Below are positions 2,238 through 64,000 of a stretch of DNA of 64,000 nt, one piece after another. Source of the stretch: Ostreococcus lucimarinus (lineage: Eukaryota); NCBI GenBank assembly GCA_000092065.1, contig CP000585.1, one strand, 5' to 3'. A model generated the notes under the pieces. It ran no database searches and was not told the origin of the DNA. It saw only the letters and a program-made list of their open reading frames with translations. Numbering within the stretch: position 1 is the stretch's first letter; the number at the start of each line of letters is the position of its first letter. The position numbers and the translations under genes were made by a program.

Positions 2238-3638
2238 TCAGTGAAGGTACATGGCGACGACGACGGTGACGTTGTCGCTCGATCCTCGATGCATACTCGT
2301 ATCCAGAAGTTCCTGGGACGCGGCCGTACAGGCCGCTTCGATGGCTTTCTTGTCGGTCGATGTACACTTGCCTTCGCTCAAGACGCCGCGCGTGGCGAGT
2401 ATTTTGCGAGCAATGTCACCCGCCTCTTGATCTCGAATGACGTCCCACATGCCGTCAGAGGCGAGAATAATGAAATTGATATCTTCGGTGAGCTCGTAAC
2501 GCGACACGTCTGGTTCTGCGGTGACGCCAGAGTCTTTCGGTCGCTTGAAATCGATGTCCCCGAGCGAACGCGAGACGGCCAAAGCCGCTCGCACGGGTTT
2601 GTACGGATGATCCGCGATGACTCGCCAGCAGCCGCAAAATTCAATCTTGCCCCCCACTGCGGTTATTCTGCGCCGTTCATTCGACATCGACGGCTTGTGG
2701 TCTTCGGTCATGGCGCGAGTGCGTCCATCAGCGTAGCTGACGACTGCTCTAGAGTCGCCAGCATGCGCTGTGAAGAGCGCGCCGCCGATTTGCAAGACGC
2801 ACACCGCCGTGCTCCCGTCTCGCCTGCCCTCCGCGGCGGTGCTGTTGAGAATTTCGTCGTCGCAATCCATGTACATTTTCTTCAAAGACGTTTCCATATC
2901 AACGTTGAACCGCGTGAGTCTTTCCGGGCACGACGGCGACGAATCTTGTAAGAGCACGTCTGGCGCGAGAAAAGTGTGCATGCGTTCGCTTGCAAACTGC
3001 GCCGCCCAGTCACCGTTGTGACCATCGTACACGCCCAAAAACGAACGACGAACGCCATCGCAACCCGTCAACCCAAAAGGTTTCAGCTCAGTCACGGCGC
3101 TGTACCTGTCCTCCATGTACGCCCGCTGTCCTTGTTCGAAAGCCACGCCGACGACGACCTGGGCGCCCACCAAAGGAATATTCGCCTCGCCATCCGCCGT
3201 CGCCGTCGCCGCCTCGCTCACTTCATCGGACAACGGCGGACTCGCGCGCGCGGAATCTAAATCTCTCGCTCCCCCAGAACTCGTAGATTCCGATCCCATA
3301 TCGACATCCTCGCGCGCTTTCGCGCTCTCATCCGTCGTCGCGCGCGCCTTTTCGCGTCGCTCTCGTCGACTCTTCCCGTGCTTCCCCTTCCTCCGGCGTT
3401 TCTCTCGCGCCTCCCACGCCTCCGCCGCCGCGTTCGCCTCCCCCCGTCTCTTCTCCTGACCCACCGCGCGCGCTTCATTCGTCTCGCGCGCCTCCTCCTC
3501 GCTCGACGACCCCGCGCCTCGGCGTTCGCGCGTCGCCTTCGCCCCGTCCCTCGCGCCCTCATCCCTCATCACCCCCTCCCGTCCTCGTCCGGCGTCCTCC
3601 ATCGCTCCGCTTTCGCTCGCGTCCGCGCGAACCATCAT
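2238..3638 (-). CDS. PP2C-type (PPM family) serine/threonine protein phosphatase.
   Basis: Catalytic-domain motifs are present: AFEQGQRAYMEDRYS, FLGVYDGHNGDWAAQF, TAHAGDSRAVV, LAVSRSLGDIDFK, ILASDGMWDV and GSSDNVTVVVA. The real ATG pair (MM) is at 3638/3635. The N-terminus is a long acidic/basic low-complexity extension. Confidence 0.8.
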   Translation of the reverse strand: MMVRADASESGAMEDAGRGREGVMRDEGARDGAKATRERRGAGSSSEEEARETNEARAVGQEKRRGEANAAAEAWEAREKRRRKGKHGKSRRERREKARATTDESAKAREDVDMGSESTSSGGARDLDSARASPPLSDEVSEAATATADGEANIPLVGAQVVVGVAFEQGQRAYMEDRYSAVTELKPFGLTGCDGVRRSFLGVYDGHNGDWAAQFASERMHTFLAPDVLLQDSSPSCPERLTRFNVDMETSLKKMYMDCDDEILNSTAAEGRRDGSTAVCVLQIGGALFTAHAGDSRAVVSYADGRTRAMTEDHKPSMSNERRRITAVGGKIEFCGCWRVIADHPYKPVRAALAVSRSLGDIDFKRPKDSGVTAEPDVSRYELTEDINFIILASDGMWDVIRDQEAGDIARKILATRGVLSEGKCTSTDKKAIEAACTAASQELLDTSMHRGSSDNVTVVVAMYLH

Positions 3639-4003
3639 CGATCGTCGTCCCGCGCCGAGCGCGTCTCCCGCCGCCGCCGTCGCGACGCGCGTCGCGCGCG
3701 CGGATTCGAACGTTCACGATGCCGCGCCGCCGGTCCGCGTTCGCGCGCGTCGCGCGTCGCGCGCCGTCGCGCGTCGCGCGCGCGCGTCGAGCGTCGCGAG
3801 ACGCGCGCGCTCGAGTCGATCGCGCGCTCTTCGCGCGCGTCGCGCGTCGCGTCGCGCGTCGCGGAGCGTCGACCGGCGGCGCGCGCGCGGCGGGAAAAGC
3901 GCGCGAAGAGCGCGCGCGCGCGCGATCGGGGGTCGTATTGAAACACCCGGAAGTACTATCAACGCGCACGCCCGAGATGCGGATCACGCGCCAGCGCTGG
4001 CGG

Positions 4004-4403
4004 CCCGTGCGCGCTGTGTCCGTATAAAGACGCGCGAAGGACCCATGTGCGCGCTGTGTCCGTATAAAGACGCGCGAAGGACCCATGTGCGCGCTGTGTC
4101 CGTATAAAGACGCGCGAAGGACCCATGTGCGCGCTGTGTCCGTATAAAGACGCGCGAAGGACCCATGTGCGCGCTGTGTCCGTATAAAGACGCGCGAAGG
4201 CCCGTGTGCGCGCTGTGTCCGTATAAAGACGCGCGAAGGCCCGTGTGCGCGCTGTGTCCGTATAAAGACGCGCGAAGGACCCATGTGCGCGCTGTGTCCG
4301 TATAAAGACGCGCGAAGGCCCGTGTGCGCGCTGTGTCCGTATAAAGACGCGCGAAGGCCCGTGTGCGCGCTGTGTCCGTATAAAGACGCGCGAAGGCCCG
4401 TGT
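4004..4403. repeat. Minisatellite of 10 tandem copies of a 39/40-bp unit, GTGCGCGCTGTGTCCGTATAAAGACGCGCGAAGG(A)CCC(A)T. Each unit contains a TATAAAG box.
   Basis: I counted the units directly. Units 1-4 and 7 carry ...aaggacccat (40 bp). Units 5, 6, 8, 9 and 10 carry ...aaggcccgt (39 bp). The last unit ends about 60 bp upstream of the ATG at 4465. The array sits in the 826-bp spacer between the divergent PP2C gene (start 3638) and the TPR/J-domain gene. Confidence 0.9.
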
Positions 4404-4464
4404 GCGACGAACGTCGACCGGCGCGAGCGTTTCGCGAGCGTTTCGAACGCCAGACGACGACGCC

Positions 4465-7122
4465 ATGGCGCGCGTCGACGTCGAGCGCGCGGCGCGCGCG
4501 TCGAGCGCGCGCGAGGCGAGCGACGCGGGACGACGCGCGCTCGCGATGGGGGAACACGCGCTCGCGCGGGCGTTTTACGACGACGCGCTGGCGATGATGA
4601 CGGAAGACGCGACGGACGAGGCGAGGGACGAGCGGGAGGGGCGACGACGGCGCGCGGAGGTGATGGCGAATCAGAGCGCGTGCGCGCTGGCGGTCGAGGC
4701 GTGGGACGACGCGATGGAGCGCGCGGAGCGGGCGATCGCGTGCGATGAGGGGTACGCGAAGGCGCACGCGAGACGGGCGGCGGCGCTGCGAGGGAAGCGG
4801 GAGTACGCGCGCGCGAGGGAGAGTTTGAAGGTGTGTCGCGCGTTGCTCGCGCGGGAGGGGGAGACGAAGATGATTCGTGACGTGGACGCGATGGTGGCGG
4901 AGATAGACGCGGACGAGGCGCGAGGAGAACAAGCTGCACGCGTGGGGATGCAAGTAAAGATGGGATCGAAGGCGCAGGCGAAACCAAACTTTTCAGCGGC
5001 GACGACGAAGGCGAAGAAGGTGGTGACTTTCGATCCAAAGCTCGACATAGATTGCGACGAGGATGTGTTCGATTCGCGAGCGTCTCAACCGCCGAGTCGG
5101 CGTTCGTCGTCGAAGCCCATGCTGATGGATCTAGGCGTGTTGGCGGTGGAAAAGGCGATCGAGATGCAACGCGCCGTCGTCGAAGCTAGAGTCGAGGGAG
5201 GCTTCGAGCACAAGCGATGTAAGATGTGCGGCAACGTGTGTCACGCAAAACTCACCGCGTGTTCGTCGTGCTGCTTGCCGCTTGTATCGGTGGATTCTTA
5301 CGAGCCGGCGACTTTGCCGCGCGCGGGCGCTGAGGCGATTTACGAGAGCGATTCTGACGACGGTGAGGAGAACGCGACGACGACGAGCGCTGAGAAAGAC
5401 GCTGAGCCGTCGTATCTCGACTCTGATCCTTGGTGGGTGAGATATTACACCCGCTCGGCGCTGACCGAGCCGACGCACTCACGTGGTTTGGACCCGGCGC
5501 TTCGATCGAGTTACGCCGCGCTCGACGTTGCGCCGGGGAGCGACGAAGTCACTGTGCGCGCGGCGTTTAGAAACGCGCTCGCGCGAGCGCACCCCGACGC
5601 CGGCGGATCCGCAAAGGAGCTAGACGTGGTAGCGAGAGCTTATGACGCGATATCTCTCGACTTTTGGCGACATGATGAAGGCGCAGCGCGATTGCGTTTG
5701 CAGTCTCGAAGGCTCGCCGACGGATCGATTGAATTCTTCGACTCGGCGAATGAAGACATATTCGTCGTACTCGAAGTTTACAGAAACAGAGAAGCAGAGC
5801 ACACGTTGAAACGGTTATTCAGCGAAGCTTCCGATCCTTCGCGCGTCTACGTCGGCGTTACATGGCAATACAAGTCCACGACGCCGCCGCCCGACGCGCT
5901 CGGCGCGCGCATCGACCGCTTGCACACGAACGTCTACGTACTGACAGAGGAAATCCAAAAGCGCGCGGCGGACGTGAAAGATCCGGTAGAGCAGGAGAAA
6001 TATTTGACTAAAATGCGACGCTTGCAACTCAAAGCTCAGCGAACGGAAGACGCGGAGGAAAAGAGGTGTCACTCAGCAAGGGTGCTCGAAGCTCGTTTCC
6101 GAGATCACGTGCGAGAGACTCACATGCCGTGGGACGCTTCGGAAGGTCCATCGTACGCGCGACATTTAGCGATGCGCAAATGGGGTGGGGAAAAGTATGT
6201 TTTGCACATTGACGCCATGACGGTCGTCGACAAGGGATGGGATGAAATCTTGGTGTCTGAACTCGAACGCTGCGGCGACGACAAACGCGTACTCACGGCT
6301 GCGCCGTTAGGATACGAGCTTAAAACTCAACCGGTCGTCGAAGAAGAGACGTTCAGACAAATGTATCAGACCGACGTGTACGGCACGATCAAAGATCGGC
6401 TGCCAGCCGTGAGTGCTCTCGGTGAAATCGATCCCGCGCGCGCGCCCGCGATTACGTGCGCGCGCGAATTCGGCGAGTCGTTGTTCCGCACGCACGCCAG
6501 GCAACTCGCGGAGGTTCCGAGCGAGCCGACGCCGGCGCTCTTCTTCAACAGTAGTTTTGCGTTCGCGCGCGCCGAGGCTTTCGTCAGAGACGCCCCGCCC
6601 GACGCCCACGCGCCGTTCTTACATCTAGGGGAAGACTTGAGCGCGAGCGCGAGGCTGTACACGCGCGGCTGGAACTTGTGCACGCCCGCGCGCGTTCCCG
6701 TGTTACGCTGCTACTCGAACGCGCCGCGCGCGATGTGGATGGAAGATCACCGTTCGGGTAAAATGCTGTACGCCGACGCGCGTTTCGGCGTCGGTAACGA
6801 ATCCGACGCGGCGCGGCGAGAATTTCTCAATTTACTCTCGCGCCGGCGCGTCCTGCAGTTGGTCGCCGCCGCGGACGACAGCTCGCAGACCTCCCGGGAC
6901 GATCCCGTGCGTTTCACGCGCGCCTACGGCGCCGGGCGCGACAGATCCATCGAGTCATTCATCGAGCACATCGGCGTCGACTTCACCGCGAAACGAATCT
7001 CGACGCGCGCCGCGTGCGGCGGACACGACGGCGCGTTCGTCGCGTCTTCGAAATCGCTTCCCGCGCCGTTCGCGAGCGCTCGGACGGGCCCGAGCGAGCG
7101 CGCCGCGCGTCGGTATGTGTAA
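4465..7122 (+). CDS. Multidomain protein with N-terminal TPR repeats, a J (DnaJ) domain with an HPD motif, and a C-terminal GT-A glycosyltransferase-like domain (Pfam 'GlcNAc' / Gnt1-like).
   Basis: TPR-like helices are seen in ALAMGEHALARAFYDDALAMM...AKAHARRAAALRGKREYARARESL. The J domain reads YAALDVAPGSDEVTVRAAFRNALARAHPDAGGSAKELDVVARAYDAISL. The C-terminal domain begins IFVVLEVYRNREAEHTLKRLFSEASDPSRVYVGVTWQ...YVLHIDAMTVVDKGWDEIL...FLHLGEDLSASARLYTRGWNL, which resembles the opening of Gnt1-type GlcNAc-transferase domains. The first ATG in this frame is at 4465 (MARVDVE...). Confidence 0.6.
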   Translation: MARVDVERAARASSAREASDAGRRALAMGEHALARAFYDDALAMMTEDATDEARDEREGRRRRAEVMANQSACALAVEAWDDAMERAERAIACDEGYAKAHARRAAALRGKREYARARESLKVCRALLAREGETKMIRDVDAMVAEIDADEARGEQAARVGMQVKMGSKAQAKPNFSAATTKAKKVVTFDPKLDIDCDEDVFDSRASQPPSRRSSSKPMLMDLGVLAVEKAIEMQRAVVEARVEGGFEHKRCKMCGNVCHAKLTACSSCCLPLVSVDSYEPATLPRAGAEAIYESDSDDGEENATTTSAEKDAEPSYLDSDPWWVRYYTRSALTEPTHSRGLDPALRSSYAALDVAPGSDEVTVRAAFRNALARAHPDAGGSAKELDVVARAYDAISLDFWRHDEGAARLRLQSRRLADGSIEFFDSANEDIFVVLEVYRNREAEHTLKRLFSEASDPSRVYVGVTWQYKSTTPPPDALGARIDRLHTNVYVLTEEIQKRAADVKDPVEQEKYLTKMRRLQLKAQRTEDAEEKRCHSARVLEARFRDHVRETHMPWDASEGPSYARHLAMRKWGGEKYVLHIDAMTVVDKGWDEILVSELERCGDDKRVLTAAPLGYELKTQPVVEEETFRQMYQTDVYGTIKDRLPAVSALGEIDPARAPAITCAREFGESLFRTHARQLAEVPSEPTPALFFNSSFAFARAEAFVRDAPPDAHAPFLHLGEDLSASARLYTRGWNLCTPARVPVLRCYSNAPRAMWMEDHRSGKMLYADARFGVGNESDAARREFLNLLSRRRVLQLVAAADDSSQTSRDDPVRFTRAYGAGRDRSIESFIEHIGVDFTAKRISTRAACGGHDGAFVASSKSLPAPFASARTGPSERAARRYV

Positions 7123-8306: not shown

Positions 8307-9401
8307 TTAATGATTATACGACGACGAATCCATGGACGCCATGCGTCCCGCCGTGAGGCGCATGTCGAAGACGTCGCTTCGTATGCTCCACTCCGCGCCC
8401 GCATTTCTACGCGTCGGGGCGTCAGGAATGGGAGGTTTCAAAAACGTCAGCGTCATCAACGCGCGACGCCCGTATTCGTTCGCACCGCCTTGGTGAAATG
8501 TGCGCGCATCGTACAACACGGCATCGCCTTTACGCAACTCGGCGTCGCAACACCTCGATTTGGCGAGTCGCGCAAACTGTTCTTCGTTCCACTTCGTCAC
8601 CGGAAACGCGTCGTGTGACGCCTTGTCTTGCGTGCCGAGCACAAAACACGTCGGTCCCATCTCCGGGATGACGTCTTGTAGCGCTATGAACAAAGAATAC
8701 AGCGGCGCGTGCGGCGCGTCGAACGCCACATCCGGATGCAAAACTTGTCTATCCGCCCCTCGTTCTGTCGCCAGCACGCTCATCTCCACCATCATCGCCT
8801 CCGCAGTTGCGTCTTCGACGTGCTCTAATATCGAATTCACCCCTCCTCGACCGCACGCTCGCAACAGCAAATCACGCGTGGCCCCATCGAATCCGAGCTT
8901 GACGTCGGTGCGCCGCAACGCGTCCCCGTACGTCGCCTTGACGGAATCACAAATCACGTTCAACTCCCCGAGCACCGCATCACACGCATCGTGCGGGACG
9001 ACATCTTTCAAAAATACCGCCCCATCGCGCTTCAACACCGCCGCGGCGTCGCGCGCGTCGTCATTCGTAATTATCCTTCGCGCCGCCGGCGCCGCCGCGA
9101 GCGCCCCGCCTCGCACCATCGCCTCGCGCTGCGCCGCGCTCTCCACTCTCAGGTACGTCGCGAGCGCGACTTCGGGCGATGAAGGTCCGAGTCCGTCGTC
9201 TTCACCGCCGTCCACGGCGTCGAGCGCCGGATCGACGACGGCGGTGACAAAGTCACTGATTCGTCTCCATACATTCGTCCGCGTCATCGTCCTATCGCGT
9301 CGCGACGTCGCGGCGCTCGTCGACGCGCGCCGCGACCGCGAGACGCGATCGCTCGACGCCGCGCGCGCGGCGACGGCTGGCGACGCGACGACGCGCGTCA
9401 T
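8307..9401 (-). CDS. PhyH-like Fe(II)/2-oxoglutarate oxygenase, paralog B, convergent with paralog A.
   Basis: The core ADRQVLHPDVAFDAPHAPLYSLFIALQDVIPEMGPTCFVLGTQD...AVLYDARTFHQGGAN is clearly homologous to the core of 7195..8301. The ATG is at 9401 (MTRVVAS...). The two stop codons are 5 bp apart. Confidence 0.6.
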   Translation of the reverse strand: MTRVVASPAVAARAASSDRVSRSRRASTSAATSRRDRTMTRTNVWRRISDFVTAVVDPALDAVDGGEDDGLGPSSPEVALATYLRVESAAQREAMVRGGALAAAPAARRIITNDDARDAAAVLKRDGAVFLKDVVPHDACDAVLGELNVICDSVKATYGDALRRTDVKLGFDGATRDLLLRACGRGGVNSILEHVEDATAEAMMVEMSVLATERGADRQVLHPDVAFDAPHAPLYSLFIALQDVIPEMGPTCFVLGTQDKASHDAFPVTKWNEEQFARLAKSRCCDAELRKGDAVLYDARTFHQGGANEYGRRALMTLTFLKPPIPDAPTRRNAGAEWSIRSDVFDMRLTAGRMASMDSSSYNH

Positions 9402-9503
9402 GACGACCGCGAAGTGACGTCAAAAAGTGTCACTTTTTGCGCATAAAAACTCCGCGTCACACGCGCGCGCGAGCGACCGCGGCGACCGCCGAGACGACGC
9501 GGT

Positions 9504-10977
9504 GATGACGTCCAAACCCGCGTCTTCGAAGTCCGCGGGGAAGCGCGCGGCGGAAGCGCGCGGGCGCGACGCGGGCGGCGGCGGCGGCGGCGCCTTTGCG
9601 AAGTGGCTTCGGGACAACAAAGTTGAGCTCGACGGCGTGGAGGTGGCGCGATTCGCGCGCACGGGGCGCGGCGTGCGAGCGACGCGTGATTTGCGCGTCG
9701 GTGAAGTCGTCGTGAGCGTTCCGGACGATGCCGTGCTCACGGTGGATGCGTGCGCGGTGAAGAAGGAATTGGGGGAGTTCGTCGGCGACGGGGACGACGA
9801 GGCGCCGTCGCCGCGGCTGGATAAAGAGCTGTTGGTCATCGCGGTGATGTGCGAGATGTGCGCGGGTAAGTCGAGCGCGTGGTGTGAGTATTTGGAGACC
9901 GTGCACGAGGCCGTGCGCGTCGGACACTCCGTGTTGGCGTGGGACGACGAACAGGTGACGGCGCTCTTCGGCACGGACGCGTGGCGAGACGCGTACGAAA
10001 ACGACGACGAGACGCTCGACCTTCCGATGATGACGGAGGAGCATTTTGAAAACGTTGTTACACTGTTTTTCAAGCTCTTTCCAAAACTGGCGAGCGGACT
10101 TTCTGTGGAAGCGCTGCGCGAACTTCATTTCGCGGCGACGGCGATGGTGGCGGGGTACTCGTTCACCCTTGGCGACGACGAGATTCAGGCCATGGTTCCG
10201 TTCTGGGACATGCTCAATCACGCGCCACCGTGCGAGGCTTCGGTGCGGCTGCATCACGATCAAAAGAATGGATGCTTGCAAATGATTACCGTGCGTGGAG
10301 TGAAGAAGGGCGAGGAAGTGTTCAACACGTACGGGCCGCTGCGAAACGCCGAGCTGTTGCGACGATACGGCTTCGTTTTGCCGCGGAACCCGCACGGTGG
10401 TACCACGGTAGGCTTGGCCGAGGTGATTCAGGCTGCCATGGGGGCAAATCCGCTCGTTGTGGACGAGCTGCCGCTTCGTTTAGCATGGCTCGAGTCTCGC
10501 GGTTTGGCGGACGAGGAGCTCAGCACGAGATTCTTCGTGCACCGGACTGGACGCCCGAGCGATAAACTTTTAATCGCGATGCGTTTGCTCACGCTTAAGC
10601 CGGAAGAGATGACGGCGCTCATAGAAGCCGACTTTGATGACGAAGAGCAGTTGATGCTTTTAGAAGGAAACGATGAAGAACGAACAGAGCAGTCATACAT
10701 GGTCGGCGCGTCGTTGCAATTTTTGGGCATGTATGCCAAATCGCGTTACGCCGAGTCCATGAAGGCGTCTCGTTTGACGTATAAAATGTACGCCAGTGTG
10801 TCGCCGCATGTGCAGAAGCATGAGAGTATCTATCGTGCGTGGGCCGCCGCTGTGGTGCGCATGGATGAGCAGCGTGCGTTGACGAAGCTTGGACGATGGA
10901 CGTACCACCCCGGACGATCCGAAGACGCGCTTTTGCACGCGTGGCCGTTTCCCGTGGCAGACGAAGAGGGGAGGTAG
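9504..10977 (+). CDS. SET-domain protein lysine N-methyltransferase with a Rubisco-LSMT-type substrate-binding C-terminal domain (SETD3/SETD6/LSMT-like).
   Basis: The SET N-region reads VELDGVEVARFARTGRGVRATRDLRVGEVVVSVPDDAVLTV. The SET core reads MVPFWDMLNHAPPCEASVRLHHD...GEEVFNTYGPLRNAELLRRYGFVLPRNPHG. The track start is GTG; the first ATG is at 9504 (MTSKPASS...). Confidence 0.65.
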
Positions 10978-46859: not shown

Positions 46860-47875
46860 CTAAACGCCGCGCATGAGTTTATCCAACACGCTGTTCACTT
46901 CGATTTTCTTTCCTGTGGCCGCCATCTCGCCGACGACGCCCAACACCTGTTCGCGGCTAAAGCCCATGTTGCCGAAGTCGGCGATCATGTGCTCGAGCGG
47001 CACCGCTCCGGATGTTTGCACCGCGCTCGCAGGCGGCGGCGGCGGCGGCGAAGACTCGATCGGAGTGTACGCGGGGTACGCCGTCGGATAGGCTGGAGAT
47101 TCCGGTCGCGGCTGCTCGAATGGCGGCGGCGGCGCACCGTACCCGTGGGGAGAACCGTGCGGTGGCGGCGCGCCGTATCCGTGAGGAGGACCGTGCGGTG
47201 GCGGAGGACCGCGATGCGGTGGTCCGCGCTCGTGTGGTGGCGGGTGACGATGCGGCGGAGGTCCACGCTCGTGCGGCGGAGGTCCACGCTCGTGCGGCGG
47301 AGGCCCACGCTCGTGCGGCGGAGGCCCACGCTCGTGCGGCGGAGGTCCACGCTCGTGCGGCGGAGGACCGTGTCCGCCTCGAGGCGGCGGACCGTGGCGT
47401 CGCGGCGTCGGTCCCCGATCCCCCCTTCGCGGCGGCGGCGGCGGCGGGCACTCCTCGTAGTGCTCCTCGTAATCATCATCGTACGACCCCGAGCCGTCGT
47501 CTTCCTCCGTCGCCTCGAACCTTTCCGACGTCGTCGACAGCGTCTCGACGCGTTCGCTCAACGCCGCCACCTGTCCCGTCAACGTTTTCAACGCCGCGCT
47601 CATCTCCGCGAACCCCTCGCGCGCGATCGCCTCCAGCGCCCGCACGCGCGCCGTGACATCTTCGATCTCCTCGTCCGCGCGCGTTTTCACCCCCTCCGTC
47701 GTCGTCTCGGCGCGTCGCGCGTTCGTTTTCGTCGTCGAGATTCGCTCGGCGTCCTCGTCAGCCTTCACCGTCGCGCGTTCGCGCTCGCGCGGCGCGCGGC
47801 GCGCGATCGGCGCCAACAGCTCGAACGGATCGCGTTGCTCGCGGTCGTTTTCGGCGTCGTCGCGGGCGACCATCG
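46860..47875 (-). CDS. Protein with an N-terminal coiled coil, a central proline-rich heptapeptide repeat region (GPPPHER)n, and a C-terminal UBA-like domain.
   Basis: The first ATG is at about 47875 (MVARDDAEND...). The repeat reads GPPPRGGHGPPPHERGPPPHERGPPPHERGPPPHERGPPPHERGPPPHRHPPPHERGPPHRGPPPPHGPPHGYGAPPPHGSPHGYGAPPPP. The C-terminus reads LEHMIADFGNMGFSREQVLGVVGEMAATGKKIEVNSVLDKLMRGV (UBA-like). Confidence 0.5.
47150..47400. repeat. Coding 21-bp minisatellite. The core GGAGGTCCACGCTCGTGCGGC has 5 near-perfect copies at about 47257-47365, flanked by degenerate copies, and encodes (GPPPHER)n on the minus strand.
   Basis: The units are read directly. They differ only at C/T in ggaggTccacg versus ggaggCccacg. 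Confidence 0.8.
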
Positions 47876-57991: not shown

Positions 57992-58004
57992 GACTTTTGT
58001 AAAA

Positions 58005-60476
58005 TTAATGTAAATGCCTCTGTCTGATTCTATCGCCAAACTTTATTGCGAACAGTCCGCAGAGCGTGCACGCACAAAGTAAACCAGTCAGTCCGAAAAG
58101 ATTGCGTCCAACGTGATCATATTCGACGCCAATGACATTCAAGTAAGTTGCGCCGCGTACTGGGACCTTGACTTGCTGGCCATCGAAGTCAGCATTGAAC
58201 AAGTACGGACCGCCTCGCATCTCGGAGGCAAGAATGCCTCCCCATGAGAAATAGAAAGGCGATAGGTAACGCACCCACGCACTTCCGCGGGGGAGTAATT
58301 TGACGTTTATCAAGAATCCAGCAAACACTGCATCGACGAGTAAGACGACAGTGTTGGCCAAAGTTGTGGCAGCCGTTGAAGTAGAAACAAACGTCATCGT
58401 GGCGCACTGAGCCGACTGACATAAAATAAAAAGCAGAATGAAGGCAAGAAAGGTAAAGAACGCGGTGAACGAAAGTCTAAGACCCATCAAAAAGTAGAAA
58501 ACCACAATTGCGAGACAGGCCGGTGGGATTCTCAAAAACAGCCAATCGATTGCGAGTTTGGTGAAAAAGTACAGCTCGCTTCCGTAGAACTTGGCGCGGA
58601 CTTGTCGCCTCGCAATTTCCCGTTCGTTGTTTATCCCATCGATAAGAGTCATCGCTGACAATGCAAAGTACACCAGAAGAAAGAACGTAGATCCCATTCG
58701 ATTCTGGAAGCCCTCGAGATCGTTAGTCGCGTCAGTCAGAAGACCTAAAATCAAACCGATCACGATTGGCGTAAAATAGTGCGAGACTAGCACTCTTCGC
58801 TCTCTACTGATGACCGCAAACGCACGCCACAAGAGCACGCGTGCTGTTTTTATGGCAGATGTGTACTCATCGTACATACATTCGGCGGCTGGAACTTGAA
58901 GTCTGGAGTGTTGTTTCGACGCCACCGACGATGGCTTTTCGTCGCGCGTCGCTTGTACTGCACAGATGAAACGATTCTGCTTGGCTTCATCGCATGCGAT
59001 ATCCAACAACCACTCCGCAGTGCTCACTCCAGGCGGAGCTTCCATGTCAATCATAGTCAACGTATTATCAAGCTCGGCCGGCGAACCCGTCCACAGCAAG
59101 CGGCCGTTCTGCGTGAGAACAAGAATTTTGTGAAAATTATCCAGGACACGCCTCGACGGTTGATGCACGGTTGCGACGACGACCTTTTCTTGGTGAGATG
59201 CGAGATCACGCAGGAGTGTGAATACGCGCCAGGACGTGTGTGCATCTAGTCCAGAAGTCGGCTCATCTAAGATAATCGTTGTTGGATCCACAACCAGCTC
59301 CTGCGCGATCGCAACCCTGCGCAATTCGCCTCCACTCAATGTTTGTTTCTGTGACAGCGTCCCGCCAACGCGAGAGTTGGAGACGTGTGTTAATCCGAGA
59401 GAATTTATGACATCATGAGTGCGCTCATGCAGCTCGTTCGCGTGCAAGAACCAGGGTAGTCGTAGGCTTGCTGCGACCCAGCACGTTTCGTAAACGCTTA
59501 ACTGCGCGATCATAGGCGTGTGCTGCGCAACAAACGCGAGGTTGTGTCGCTTTTCGTCCAACTCTTCTCCATTTACCAATATCGTTCCACTTTTGAGAAA
59601 GTTTCCGTGAACAAGCGCGTTCATGAGCGTCGTCTTTCCACAGCCGCTCGGTCCCAGAACGCCCACGATTTCCCCTGGGTGAAACGTCGCACTTACGTCA
59701 TCAATTATGATGCGATCATCATCCACGGAGCACGTCACGTTTTTCAGCTCTACCGTAGTAGGGTACTTATAACGTGGCACTACGTTGTGCGCAAAGATTT
59801 CACGGAGTTTCCAACGCTGCTGAGATCTAAATCTGACAAAGACGAACGCGGCCATGCCCACAACGCCAGCCACAACGCCGAGTGCGATGCCTGCAGTCGC
59901 CGCTGACTTGTCCGAAGTCTCCATCCCTCCAGTTCCATTCATAGCTTCTACCGCACCAAATGCATCCTCAATATCCGGACGAATGTACGATTCATTCGTG
60001 TTTCGAGCTTCTACCGCACCAAATTCATCCTCAATATCCGGACGAATGTACGATTCATTCGTGTTTCGAAGCCATTCCGTCGGCATCGGTGGAGCGCGAG
60101 GCGGCGGTGGCGTCGTCAAACAAGGCAAATCGTCTCGAGGACACTGCGAAACTCGAAGGAACGCCGCGATGGTCGCCCCGTTTTGTAATAGTACGTCTAG
60201 ATTCTGCACCGCACATGCGTCCAGGTCCAGTTGCGACACGTCATACCCAGCTTGCGCCAATCTCTCGCCTAAGAAGCACACGCAGCTCTCGCAGAGGTCT
60301 TCGAGCGACAGGGAGCACGCCTCGCCGAGCCCAACCAGATCAACTCGGCCAGCGTCGATCGGGCACGTGTTTTGCGCGAGAGCGATGACGAAGTGCGATG
60401 AGACGACCAGATATACGATGAGAAACTTGAAACGCATGGTTGCGGCTCGGAGTGAAGCCCGCCTCGATACCGACAT
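58005..60476 (-). CDS. ABCG (White)-type half-transporter with an atypical N-terminal extension: signal peptide, Cys-containing ectodomain, an extra TM helix, then the NBD and a 6-TM ABC-2 membrane domain.
   Basis: ATGs lie at 60476 and 60437; the second begins the signal peptide MRFKFLIVYLVVSSHFVIALA. The ectodomain has spaced Cys, a PPPPRAPPMP stretch and an internal 21-aa duplication RNTNESYIRPDIED(E/A)FGAVEA. The extra TM reads AGIALGVVAGVVGMAAFVFV. In the NBD, Walker A reads GVLGPSGCGKTTLMNAL and the signature plus Walker B reads LSGGELRRVAIAQELVVDPTTIILDEPTSGLD. The H-loop reads VVATVHQPS. Confidence 0.75.
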   Translation of the reverse strand: MSVSRRASLRAATMRFKFLIVYLVVSSHFVIALAQNTCPIDAGRVDLVGLGEACSLSLEDLCESCVCFLGERLAQAGYDVSQLDLDACAVQNLDVLLQNGATIAAFLRVSQCPRDDLPCLTTPPPPRAPPMPTEWLRNTNESYIRPDIEDEFGAVEARNTNESYIRPDIEDAFGAVEAMNGTGGMETSDKSAATAGIALGVVAGVVGMAAFVFVRFRSQQRWKLREIFAHNVVPRYKYPTTVELKNVTCSVDDDRIIIDDVSATFHPGEIVGVLGPSGCGKTTLMNALVHGNFLKSGTILVNGEELDEKRHNLAFVAQHTPMIAQLSVYETCWVAASLRLPWFLHANELHERTHDVINSLGLTHVSNSRVGGTLSQKQTLSGGELRRVAIAQELVVDPTTIILDEPTSGLDAHTSWRVFTLLRDLASHQEKVVVATVHQPSRRVLDNFHKILVLTQNGRLLWTGSPAELDNTLTMIDMEAPPGVSTAEWLLDIACDEAKQNRFICAVQATRDEKPSSVASKQHSRLQVPAAECMYDEYTSAIKTARVLLWRAFAVISRERRVLVSHYFTPIVIGLILGLLTDATNDLEGFQNRMGSTFFLLVYFALSAMTLIDGINNEREIARRQVRAKFYGSELYFFTKLAIDWLFLRIPPACLAIVVFYFLMGLRLSFTAFFTFLAFILLFILCQSAQCATMTFVSTSTAATTLANTVVLLVDAVFAGFLINVKLLPRGSAWVRYLSPFYFSWGGILASEMRGGPYLFNADFDGQQVKVPVRGATYLNVIGVEYDHVGRNLFGLTGLLCACTLCGLFAIKFGDRIRQRHLH

Positions 60477-60591
60477 AGTTTTGGTGACTGTCTCGGGATC
60501 GTCAGCGCGTGGCGACGAGCGTTTGAACGTCGACGATTACTATTGCAAACGACAACGCACGCGCTAAAGACTATGAACTAATTCTAAAGTG

Positions 60592-63500
60592 CTACATTTT
60601 GAATATTTTTGTGTAGTCGAATGCGAAATCGATCGGATTACCGCGCGAAATCGCGATTGGAATGTCTCCTTCTGCTTTTGCAGGAGATTTGCATCGCACG
60701 CTTCCGTCGCCGTTGAACAGCGCGTGGATGGGACCAGTGGTGCCGAATTTACACCAAACTGGAGTGTCTGGAGGGAAATAACTACTCGCAACAGTGAGTG
60801 TGGTACCACCAGCGCGAGTCCCAGCAAGTGGTGACAACGAAGAGAGCGGCATATTTTCAATCGGTTCAAAGACGATTTGAGAACCGGTCCAATCGTCCGC
60901 ATTCAAGGAGAGATCAACCACAAGGGGCGCGTCCATCAAACCGATGGAGAACGTGGGAGTCTCACATCGCATGATCGTGGAAGACACATGAACGGCACCA
61001 ACGGTATACATCCCGCCGAAGCGGCAAGATAAGCCGTCCACCGACGTTCCTGGCATCATCGGCGATCCATGTGAGGCGACAGAAACGGATTGAATCAAGT
61101 TGTCTCCGTGCACATTGATGACTGTCCCACCCCCGAAGACGCCCATCTCCGGGTATACCATGTCGATTTCTGGTGCTTCTTGGAACTCGAACTGAATCCC
61201 AATTGCAGTGTACGAAGTCCCAGCTTCGGAACTGGGCGACAGTTGCACTGGCACAAAGCCTGCGTCACTCGATGGTGTCAAGCACTTGGCCGTGCTCGAA
61301 TCGCTGATGAAACCGTTTCCATATCTCGAAAAAAACTTGCACGCTAACGAAGAGGGTACAGAAGCACTGAACGAGAATGAAATTAATGTGCCTCCTGAGT
61401 TGGGTCCGAAGAGGTTCGTGGCGGAATTGATACCACCAGTGAAGTCTGGTACAGGAGTGACTGTGGCGTCGGTGTCGCTGTCAGAACTTGCAGAGTTGAC
61501 AAATTTGCTGTAATCCAGCATGTTGTTTGACACTCTGACCGAATAAGTCTGAGGTTTAAGACCAGGAGCGACGCAATTCAAAATCGTAGCGCTCACATAA
61601 GTAGCTCGAACATGAATTTCACCAAACTTGCAAAATAAATCGCGGTTCGACACGAACCCACTTCCAGTTAACTTGACGAGCCTGCCTCCTGATTCCAGAG
61701 TTTCCAAAGCGGCGGCATTCGTCATGCTTGGCAAACTGCGGTACTTCATAACGGCTCCTGCCGAGCCCCACGAATCGGAATCGACGAAACCTGTGGATGT
61801 GTAGATGCTGGCAGTCGCATCAGAGGCGCCCGCTGGGGCCTCGAAGCGAATCAACGCCGAAGACAAAAAGCTCTGTGAAATGTATGGGTTCGTCTGTGCC
61901 ACATCGCCGAGACGAATCGACGTCATGCCCTCGACGAAGTTCACTCCTGACACGACCGCGACAGTGCCACCTCCCGTCACCGCAATGTTTGGCTGAACAG
62001 TGGCGGATGATGCGCCATCCACGTAAGCGAGCTGCGGGACATTCACAGTCAGATTTGCTCCTCCTGGGAGTTGAAGTATCGCAAAGTTGACCGAGTGAAT
62101 TTGCGTGAGGATTCCGCCTATGTTATTGGCTTCTTGACAGAGCGTGTACTGCGGCGCAGCTGGATTGCACGTCGGTACTGACGAAGGCAGGCTACCGATG
62201 TGCGCGTGCAAACGAACGAATACGTTGTCCTTCGCCGGTACGACACTCGGGATGAGCGGACTCGGTTCGAATGGCTTGAAGAACGTCAACTCTGCCTCGT
62301 ATGGATCACTTCTCGCCGATAAGGCGTGCGACAAAAACAGCATTTTATTTCCACTGACAGTCGCGGGGCTGATTGCTTCGACTTGTGCAGCGGTCACCCA
62401 GCGCAAAGCGAGAGGCGAAATCGTACCAAGTGACGCATACAGATCATACACTTGCATACCCAAATCAGTTCCGAAAATGTTCATGGCGCTACCGCCATCG
62501 AGGAATAAGCTATCCGCTTGTAAACTCGTAATAGCTGGTCGCATGATCGAGTTAAGCTCGGCTTGCCCATCTTCCGGTGTCGTACCCAATAAGCCAGCCG
62601 TCAGGCCAATTTCAATCAGGGGATCTGCGTACGGTGACTCGCAAATAATCAACGATGAACTCACAAAGTGTGCATCGATGGCGAACGTCGCGGTGAACTC
62701 GTTCTGATACCAAGGCGAGAACATGCACACTAATCCGTCCGAAATCGCATCGACCAGCATGACAGAGACTAATGTGCCGCCGCCGGTGTGAATCACCTCT
62801 GGCCCCCACGCGTCGATTGTCGGCGACGTGACATAATGGAAACTACCAGAGAACGACGTATTGGCGGCATCAGGTCCTGTGATTATGATGGGATACATTC
62901 CTTCGATGAACGAATCTCGTTCCAACGTGCATAGAATGGAGTAGATATTCGTCGTCACAGAGTAAGTACTCGTTAATGTAGTACCTCCCGTGAGGCAACC
63001 TCGTGAGGAGACGTTTTGAGCTGGATACGGCGCTTCGTAAAAGGCCTCAACGGTCGCAACTTGATCCGTCACGTGACCAGCGCGAGGAAGGACATCCTTG
63101 ATTTTCGCTGGGAAAACGTAATCAAGCGTCAAAATAGAATCCACCGACGTACCAGATGGTAACGCGGGGTTCGCAAGACTGAGCGTGAGCTCATAACGCC
63201 AGTCTCGCTTGTTCATGGAAATTTGAAGATGCACGCTCTCTTTGCTGTGAGCCGGAGAGATACACTTGAGTACTTTGGAATCGTATGCACGTGCATAAAA
63301 AGGACCAATTGTGCCGGCACGGCACCAAATAGTGGACGGCGCTGAAAGTTTATCACCACTGACGATCAATGTCGACCCCCCTTCGATAGGGGAAAACGTG
63401 GGCGAGACGGATGAAAGTAACAGCTGATCGAGCGCAGTGAAGGCAGTCGATGGCGAATGCTCATGCGTCGACGCGTAAAGCGCTTTTGTTCCTTTCGTCG

Positions 63501-64000
63501 CGAATGTGGGCGTTTCGATAATGCCGAGAGCAGAAGAAACGACGTGCGAAACGACGGCGGTACTTCCAAACATGACTCGGCTCACGTCGCCTTTGCGGAA
63601 ATTTGCGCCAGACATGAATAGAACCGTGCCACCATCCACGGGTCCAACCAGTGGATCCACACTAGTCACCGATAGAGGATCATAGTACTCAAACTGCGTT
63701 TGTGTCGAATCATATTGCGTGTATGTGGATACGATTGCATAGACTCCAACCTGTACGAAACCCGCCACTGCGCTTGCACCCCAGGAACACGTGATGGAAC
63801 CGTCGGTCGATGAGACTTGTCTTGCGGTGACGTTTAACGAGCTGCACAAGTCTGTAACGGCAGAGTCCAATCCCGCGCCGAATATTGTGTATTCAGTCGT
63901 GATATGCATTGGTCCGTGCGCTGGTATGACTGCATCGACGTTATATGGGGACTTTGCATAAGTGTACGTGACGCCTCTGTATGTTGTCGGTGTACCACCC
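60592..64000 (-). CDS. Very large extracellular/surface protein built from many IPT/TIG-like immunoglobulin-fold repeats. The N-terminus lies beyond the right window edge.
   Basis: IPT/TIG-style units recur at least 10 times, for example SVDPLVGPVDGGTVLFMSGANFRKGDVSRVMFGS, VSPTFSPIEGGSTLIVSGDKL, TSLQADSLFLDGGSAMNIFGTDL, ALETLESGGRLVKLTGSGFVSNRDLFCKFGEIHVRATYVSATILNCVAP and DMVYPEMGVFGGGTVINVHGDNL. The frame stays open upstream of the track ATG at 63909 as far as position 64000 (GGTPTTYRGVTYTYAKSPYNVDAVIPAHGP-MHITTEY...). Confidence 0.6.
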   Translation of the reverse strand, partial: GGTPTTYRGVTYTYAKSPYNVDAVIPAHGPMHITTEYTIFGAGLDSAVTDLCSSLNVTARQVSSTDGSITCSWGASAVAGFVQVGVYAIVSTYTQYDSTQTQFEYYDPLSVTSVDPLVGPVDGGTVLFMSGANFRKGDVSRVMFGSTAVVSHVVSSALGIIETPTFATKGTKALYASTHEHSPSTAFTALDQLLLSSVSPTFSPIEGGSTLIVSGDKLSAPSTIWCRAGTIGPFYARAYDSKVLKCISPAHSKESVHLQISMNKRDWRYELTLSLANPALPSGTSVDSILTLDYVFPAKIKDVLPRAGHVTDQVATVEAFYEAPYPAQNVSSRGCLTGGTTLTSTYSVTTNIYSILCTLERDSFIEGMYPIIITGPDAANTSFSGSFHYVTSPTIDAWGPEVIHTGGGTLVSVMLVDAISDGLVCMFSPWYQNEFTATFAIDAHFVSSSLIICESPYADPLIEIGLTAGLLGTTPEDGQAELNSIMRPAITSLQADSLFLDGGSAMNIFGTDLGMQVYDLYASLGTISPLALRWVTAAQVEAISPATVSGNKMLFLSHALSARSDPYEAELTFFKPFEPSPLIPSVVPAKDNVFVRLHAHIGSLPSSVPTCNPAAPQYTLCQEANNIGGILTQIHSVNFAILQLPGGANLTVNVPQLAYVDGASSATVQPNIAVTGGGTVAVVSGVNFVEGMTSIRLGDVAQTNPYISQSFLSSALIRFEAPAGASDATASIYTSTGFVDSDSWGSAGAVMKYRSLPSMTNAAALETLESGGRLVKLTGSGFVSNRDLFCKFGEIHVRATYVSATILNCVAPGLKPQTYSVRVSNNMLDYSKFVNSASSDSDTDATVTPVPDFTGGINSATNLFGPNSGGTLISFSFSASVPSSLACKFFSRYGNGFISDSSTAKCLTPSSDAGFVPVQLSPSSEAGTSYTAIGIQFEFQEAPEIDMVYPEMGVFGGGTVINVHGDNLIQSVSVASHGSPMMPGTSVDGLSCRFGGMYTVGAVHVSSTIMRCETPTFSIGLMDAPLVVDLSLNADDWTGSQIVFEPIENMPLSSLSPLAGTRAGGTTLTVASSYFPPDTPVWCKFGTTGPIHALFNGDGSVRCKSPAKAEGDIPIAISRGNPIDFAFDYTKIFKM

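Follow-up and report, generated by a model that had tools for sequence, protein, structure and literature searches.

In the picoalga Ostreococcus lucimarinus, the spacer between two divergent genes, one for a glycosyltransferase (GT) and one for a PP2C phosphatase, holds a minisatellite of ten near-identical units, each with a TATAAAG motif directed toward the GT gene. We analyzed this element within a stretch of 64,000 nucleotides of contig CP000585.1 (assembly GCA_000092065.1), hereafter the window, of which it is the outstanding tandem repeat. Ostreococcus genomes are among the most compact in eukaryotes, intergenic minisatellites are rare in them, and the alga is a transformable green alga. 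From the structure of the array, its variation within the species and its distribution among relatives, we conclude with a probability of roughly 0.55 that it is a lineage-specific variable number tandem repeat (VNTR) upstream of the GT gene, with the proximal copy serving as a putative working core promoter and the distal copies being redundant or modulatory.

A single-locus array of TATAAAG-bearing units

Tandem Repeats Finder (TRF) reports positions 4007–4406 as a repeat of period 40 with 10.1 copies, 98% matches and a score of 730, about three times that of the second-ranked array of the window (247). The array resolves into ten full units starting at 4007, 4047, 4087, 4127, 4167, 4206, 4245, 4285, 4324 and 4363, followed by a partial GTGCG at 4402–4406, and it stops 59 bp before the GT start codon at 4465. 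Units are of two types, A (40 bp, ending ..GGACCCAT) and B (39 bp, ending ..GGCCCGT), in the order AAAA BB A BBB. A preliminary description of this DNA had proposed ten tandem 40-bp units, each with a TATAAAG, upstream of the gene at 4465, interleaved in a 4-2-1-3 order of subtypes; TRF and ten matches to the unit core agree with the former, unit decoding agrees with the latter, and the location was right apart from a start given as 4004, 3 bp early. The 21-mer GTGTCCGTATAAAGACGCGCG has ten exact matches where 0.01 would be expected by chance, all of them within the array, and no further copy with up to three mismatches on either strand of the window.

The left edge of the array reads TGGCGGCCC followed by GTGCGCGC, the junctions between units read GAAGGCCCGT followed by GTGCGCGC, and the array ends in GGCCCGT followed by GTGCG and then by unique sequence. 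The left junction and the array end GGCCCGTGTGCG (4395–4406) thereby constitute a short direct repeat, and the left flank is polymorphic between alleles, GGCGGCCC versus GGCGGACC, in parallel with the B and A subtypes of the units. There is also a higher-order repeat, whose copies at 4122–4239 and 4240–4357 are 99% identical, and the reference allele can accordingly be written AAA(ABB)(ABB)B. With head-to-tail units in the range of ~10–100 bp and high identity between them, the array belongs to the minisatellite class and is, in all structural respects, a single-locus minisatellite VNTR.

Every unit of the window allele carries a TATAAAG (starts 4023 to 4379), and the last of these lies 86 bp before the ATG, near the ~80 bp estimated earlier. 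TATAAA occurs 18 times in the 64 kb, ten times in the array and eight times elsewhere, always inside coding sequence. None of the ~29 other gene starts in the window has a TATAAA within 160 bp upstream, and the upstream regions are mostly CG-rich without any AT run. It is unlikely that the sole intergenic TATAAA motifs of 64 kb stand in sense orientation and at a sensible distance from a gene by accident. The distance depends on the choice of start codon. The O. lucimarinus CCE9901 protein XP_001417797.1, to which the GT protein is identical at 819 of 819 residues, an identity that marks the window as the CCE9901 reference, begins at Met67 of the 885-aa open reading frame (ORF), at window position 4663. 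Orthologues with as little as 54% identity still conserve the 66 residues before Met67 (residues 10–66 across orthologues), which makes the ATG at 4465 the better choice, and the 86-bp geometry between TATA and ATG holds.

If a transcription start site (TSS) is placed nominally 30 bp past each TATA of the window allele, the four proximal TATAs would yield leaders of 56–174 nt without an upstream ATG, and the proximal TATAAAG at −86 is compatible with a leader of ~55 nt. Under the same rule, the six distal TATAs would yield leaders with one to four upstream ATGs, which arise where an A-type unit meets the next (CCCATGTGC). From the ATG at 4283 runs a 104-codon ORF, out of frame and overlapping the main ATG. 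Every allele examined terminates in a B unit, which is without the ATG.

Two other properties of the repeat were considered and set aside. Hairpin or cruciform formation by the unit finds no support, as its folds (z −1.15, −0.35 and −0.13) are no better than those of shuffled sequences. Coding through the array was likewise rejected: the minus-strand ORFs that cross it (for example 3984–4466, 160 aa) are artefacts, and since alleles combine 40-bp and 39-bp units in differing numbers, no reading frame is kept across the array.

Copy number and arrangement differ between alleles

To compare alleles we used 36 independent O. lucimarinus-type contigs that span the 5' end of the GT gene, obtained through exact-protein look-ups and one metagenome pattern scan. 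In all contigs with both flanks, the array lies at the same place between the PP2C and GT genes. Unit numbers in complete arrays are 2, 3, 4, 5, 6, 7 or 10, and more than 12 arrangements occur. The reference has 10 units. Of the four chromosome-scale contigs, the three of 837–841 kb have 5 each, in two different arrangements, and the 834-kb contig L022 has 6, reading (AAB)(AAB). Metagenome contigs hold arrays of 7, 6, 4, 3 and 2 units. About a dozen single-base or small-indel variants of the unit were seen, and of ~15 variants in all only one (v1, TATAAG) has lost the TATAAAG. By contrast with this variability, every allele ends in a B unit and then an identical 59-bp leader. The left flank of the array has ~14 single-nucleotide polymorphism sites plus indels in 368 bp (14 sequences).

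The polymorphism in length and sequence is genuine, being seen in chromosome-scale contigs and in arrays tagged by unit variants, and the recurrence of the array in dozens of independent assemblies excludes an assembly artefact. The length polymorphism between strains anticipated in the preliminary description is thus found, at 2–10 units. Its proposal of unequal crossing-over also fits, as both the reference allele and L022 contain block duplications; from the (ABB)x2 and (AAB)x2 blocks we infer later unequal exchange with three-unit register shifts. Copy numbers from short-read assemblies, especially the common 2-unit form, are unreliable on account of breaks, gaps and probable collapse at the array, and a set of short-read contigs (L001, L019 and L032–L043) start there. 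Logan contigs all start 88 bp before the ATG, which is k−1 = 30 nt into the last unit, and their 3' ends are without poly(A). We considered these contig ends as transcript ends and rejected the idea, since a k-mer graph breaks at k−1 and poly(A) is lacking.

Evidently 2–10 copies are tolerated, which argues against tight constraint on number. The array is a ready-made and highly informative marker for strains and populations of O. lucimarinus in metagenomes, and the alleles form a natural series of 2–10 copies of a TATA module with which the question of TATA dosage could be addressed in a TATA-poor green alga.

Origin of the unit and its putative role as a promoter

The divergent arrangement of the PP2C and GT genes is the same at all related loci. 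In the nearest relative recovered (locus L009, 89% protein identity, identical gene order) the spacer measures 481 bp, has neither a unit of the array nor a TATA, and shares with O. lucimarinus a PP2C-proximal block, the block at 3917–3953 and the last 17 nt before the ATG, while the array region is unalignable. As L009 is without the array despite identical synteny, the array arose after that split and is therefore recent. Three distant orthologous loci (L023, L024 and L026, 54–62% identity) keep the divergent gene pair with spacers of 503–640 bp, which brings the range in relatives without the array to 481–640 bp. These lengths indicate that a long spacer is ancestral and that the array was only added to it. 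In O. lucimarinus the spacer (3639–4464) had been described as 826 bp long against 60–330 bp elsewhere in the window; the first figure stands when the longest ORFs are used, and the second is approximate, with clean spacers of 5–264 bp and several larger gaps in a crude gene list.

The spacers of L023, L024 and L026 each contain exactly one match to TGTGTYY-N(0-12)-TATA, on the strand of the gene, and the pattern occurs nowhere else in these three 6–8-kb loci. Against dinucleotide shuffles of the three spacers, its occurrence has p = 0.0016, 0.0004 and <0.0002. This result is suggestive, and only that, of an array unit that is an amplified piece of the gene's own old promoter module. The surroundings of the motif were also inspected. 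In L023 (2357–2470) it sits in an AT/GT-rich patch with two overlapping TATATA and a T5 run ~70 nt later; in L026 (2150–2210) the patch is likewise AT/GT-rich, with a second ATTTATAAAT 40 bp downstream. Neither motif patch in these outgroup spacers matches an Rfam family.

We propose the following course of events. A ~40-bp segment, TGTGTCC-TATAAAG-...GG(A)CCC(A/G)T, bracketed by the short direct repeat GGCCCGTG.., would have been tandemly duplicated, the initial duplication postdating the split between O. lucimarinus and the nearest relative sampled. A single ancestral copy flanked by the direct repeat GGCCCGTG(T)GCG, ~39 bp apart, would form a classic substrate for replication slippage, and the left junction may have been the seed. 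As the allele structures show, the array gains and loses single units and multi-unit blocks through slippage or unequal exchange, with the gene-proximal unit staying fixed. In this model the TATAAAG nearest the gene, whose 86-bp distance from the ATG is constant, is most likely a TATA-type core promoter producing a ~55-nt leader without upstream ATG. The distal copies would be redundant promoter duplicates that are not individually required; at most they would tune expression, either as extra sites for TBP or other factors or as minor upstream starts burdened with upstream ATGs. We favor the proximal copy because the distal leaders carry upstream ATGs and because the proximal unit and its leader are invariant.

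Several observations weigh against this model. The TGTGTYY..TATA pattern is missing from the nearest outgroup, L009. The pattern was itself defined post hoc, after the sequences had been seen, and it lies at about −116 from the ATG in L024, at −129 from the called ATG in L023 (farther if that ATG is an over-extension) and at −340 in L026. Tests of homology that do not depend on it were not significant: local alignment of the whole unit to the outgroup spacers, judged against shuffles, gave a best p of 0.07, and an nhmmer profile of the unit searched against the outgroup loci gave a best E of 0.23, outside the spacer. The promoter-derived origin raised in the preliminary description is thus plausible from the three distant orthologues and unsupported by the unbiased tests. 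That description had also called the TATA canonical. The motif contains the TATAAA core but has a G at position 7, the strict TATAWAW pattern has no match in the array, and no other promoter of the window has a TATAAA. The promoter role of any array TATA is putative. Nearly all window promoters are without TATAAA, and the real start could be TATA-independent and the TATAAAG incidental; given that promoters in this genome are mostly TATA-less, a TATA is not required for transcription here. The invariance of the proximal unit and leader (0 of 102 sites variable in 27 sequences) partly reflects sampling, as protein identity was the basis for collecting the loci and the anchor takes up 24 of the 102 nt. 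Among the alleles, the 2-unit forms frequent in short-read assemblies may result from collapse, and N-gaps stand at the array in three scaffolds (L012, L029 and L031).

Much of this evidence would also suit a neutral minisatellite in which TATAAAG is incidental, the GT promoter is TATA-less with its determinants in the 59-bp leader and/or at 3917–3953, and the array is a passive insertion into the spacer. The ~29 other window promoters without a nearby TATAAA, the TATA-less promoter of the nearest outgroup, the long spacers of relatives that have no array, the tolerance of 2–10 copies and the non-significant homology tests all agree with such a reading. We nonetheless consider it doubtful, because all ten intergenic TATAAA of the 64 kb fall in one element in sense orientation with the proximal one at a plausible −86, because the corresponding spacers of the three distant orthologues have a TGTGTYY..TATA on the same strand, and because the proximal unit is invariant in 27–36 sequences. 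At the other extreme, many or all units could act as core promoters, giving a ladder of TSSs at ~40-bp steps and an output that scales with unit number, a rheostat of promoter dosage. Consistent with this are the retention of TATAAAG in the same orientation in all units, lost in one of ~15 variants, and the wide range of copy numbers between alleles; PMC4857002 and PMC8096271 describe promoter tandem-repeat polymorphisms that modify expression in other eukaryotes. However, recent duplication or concerted evolution by itself predicts that TATAAAG is retained, and its retention does not show selection; the six distal TATAs would give the ATG-burdened leaders described above, including the one with the 104-codon ORF, and the proximal unit is the sole one fixed in all alleles. 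Multiple starts and copy-number-dependent dosage are thus somewhat disfavored, and we hold the ladder to be unlikely. A bolder version, an evolving stack of putatively functional TATA core promoters in which unit number sets output, noise or TSS choice, seems to us quite unlikely. If it were true, the A and B junctions, depending on whether they contain an upstream ATG, would impose a further, translational filter, and natural O. lucimarinus populations would possess a fast-mutating dial for expression at the GT locus.

Two further explanations concern what the unit is. One is that a mobile or dispersed element of the introner or satellite kind landed at the locus and that the units are its copies. 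It was suggested in the preliminary description, and this suggestion is all that speaks for it. The array is intergenic and not intronic, the window holds no other copy with up to three mismatches, and a metagenome scan for exact matches to a 26-mer of the unit returned two contigs, both at the GT locus; this search covered the 64-kb window of a 13-Mb genome and a partial metagenome collection, and the collection missed JGI contigs with exact matches (L006, L013–L015, L022 and L028). Viral contigs gave 0 matches, and a viral origin of the unit was accordingly rejected. A dispersed origin is on these grounds very improbable. Least credible of all is a promoter of the small nuclear RNA (snRNA) type (type 3, upstream sequence element (USE) plus TATA), formed by each unit junction with the next TATA, from which a small non-coding RNA would be transcribed. 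The unit end CCC(A/G)TGT, ~22 bp before the next TATA, does resemble the O. lucimarinus USE consensus, CCCRTAA (PMC8287931 Table 1), and green-algal type-3 promoters with a TATA are read by RNA polymerase III (Pol III; PMC8287931). But the array contains CCCRTGT only and CCCRTAA is absent from it, no T4 terminator lies between the last TATA and the ATG, and the structure of the unit is not above background (z −0.1 to −1.2). Searches for known RNA families and tRNAs, run on the spacer, the entire window and the outgroup loci, gave nothing meaningful: no Rfam family was matched, in the outgroup spacers included, and no tRNA was found. Over these alternatives we retain the lineage-specific VNTR with a proximal copy as the putative core promoter.

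Genomic setting and comparison with known systems

The features of the locus are collected in the table.

Features of the PP2C/GT locus (window coordinates)
Feature	Position	Strand	Remarks
PP2C phosphatase gene, 466-aa ORF, divergent	2238..3638	-	PF00481 3e-50
Conserved spacer block CGCGCGCGATCGGGGGTCGTATTGAAACACCCGGAAG	3917..3953		54 bp left of array; outside repeat; aligns near-perfectly with outgroup L009
Left junction TGGCGGCCC	3998..4006	+	resembles unit 3' end GAAGGCCCGT
Minisatellite array	4007..4406	+	10 full units (A = 40 bp, B = 39 bp; AAAABBABBB) + partial GTGCG
Higher-order duplication, two consecutive 118-bp A-B-B blocks (units 4-6, 7-9)	4127..4362	+	TRF period-118 row, 97%
Proximal B-type unit + 59-bp unique leader	4363..4464	+	invariant, 0/102 variable sites (27 sequences)
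Proximal TATAAAG, candidate working TATA box	4379..4385	+ (toward GT gene)	86 bp before ATG; putative function
GT gene, 885-aa protein, GlcNAc-type glycosyltransferase domain	4465..7122	+	PF11397 3.4e-105

The GT gene had been labeled as encoding a TPR/J-domain/glycosyltransferase protein. The glycosyltransferase part is upheld by PF11397; the matches to the J-domain (22.9 bits, cutoff 27.8) and, at the N-terminus, to TPR (E 0.03–0.16) are sub-threshold, although homologues have both Pfam matches. For the PP2C gene, XP_001418032.1 has 329 aa with a 24-aa internal gap relative to the 466-aa ORF, which an MMETSP transcript encodes complete. The RefSeq models of both genes appear to be N-terminally truncated.

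The 37-bp block at 3917–3953, CGCGCGCGATCGGG(G/T)GTCGTATTGAAACACCCGGAAG, matches L009 at 5757–5792 amid spacer that is otherwise poorly alignable; the spacers of the more distant orthologues lack it. The window has no second copy of the block, in which most alleles show a small inverted repeat, GGGTGT..ACACCC. It may serve the divergent PP2C and GT genes as a common regulatory element.

Elsewhere in the window, the 103-bp spacer 9402–9504 between a divergent pair of genes, PhyH-family at 8307–9401(-) and SET-domain at 9505–10977(+), is one of the few AT-rich promoter regions; it contains a perfect palindrome TGACGTCA (9415–9422), an 8+1+8 palindrome AAAAAGTG-T-CACTTTTT (9422–9438) and then ATAAAAA. 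The GC content falls to 0.51–0.53 at 58000–64000, from ~0.6 or higher across most of the window, and this part holds two genes with a lower third-codon-position GC (~0.55), for an ABC-2 transporter at 58005–60476(-) and an IPT/TIG-repeat protein at 60592–63909(-). Two other near-perfect tandem repeats are one of 21 bp x 5.5 at 47251–47366 (97%, TGCGGCGGAGGTCCACGCTCG), in a region without a Pfam-annotated ORF, and one of 63 bp x 2.0 at 59943–60069 (98%), inside the ABC-transporter ORF.

Among repeats described in other organisms, the introner elements known in the related genus Micromonas are likewise short repeated sequences in a Mamiellales genome, but they are dispersed at thousands of loci, inside genes, and spliced, whereas the O. 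lucimarinus unit is single-locus, intergenic and tandem. The INS VNTR and the MAOA-uVNTR, the classic human regulatory VNTRs upstream of genes, resemble the array in having minisatellite-sized units in the proximal 5' region and alleles that differ by number and by interspersed variants. Their units, however, are G-rich or factor-binding and without a TATA box, and their allele-specific effects on expression are documented. The intergenic spacers (IGS) of ribosomal DNA (rDNA) in Xenopus and Drosophila contain spacer promoters and enhancer repeats, and there too tandem copies of a piece of the gene's promoter are stacked upstream of the working promoter in variable number. Those spacers differ in serving RNA polymerase I at a multicopy family, with enhancer and spacer-transcript function shown, whereas the present case concerns a single-copy, protein-coding gene, presumably transcribed by RNA polymerase II, and a putative promoter function. 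IGS minisatellites are among the subjects of PMC6589552.

The closest likeness is to promoter VNTRs and expression-associated VNTRs (eVNTRs): in both, head-to-tail units lie within the few hundred bp upstream of a gene, copy number varies between individuals or strains, slippage or unequal exchange generates the alleles, and the repeat is a candidate quantitative modifier of expression. Promoter repeats of this kind have reportedly been described in yeast by Vinces et al. (2009, in Science). The O. lucimarinus array differs in that each unit carries a TATA-box-like motif and not a nucleosome-excluding or factor-binding tract, and in that the genome of its picoalgal host is extremely compact and TATA-poor. 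For humans, promoter tandem repeats and minisatellite VNTRs are treated in PMC4857002, PMC8096271 and a 2012 G3 article (PMC3516485). Copy-variable promoter repeats are well established in yeast and humans, where they are documented as sources of variation in expression, and the array extends this known class and opens no new one.

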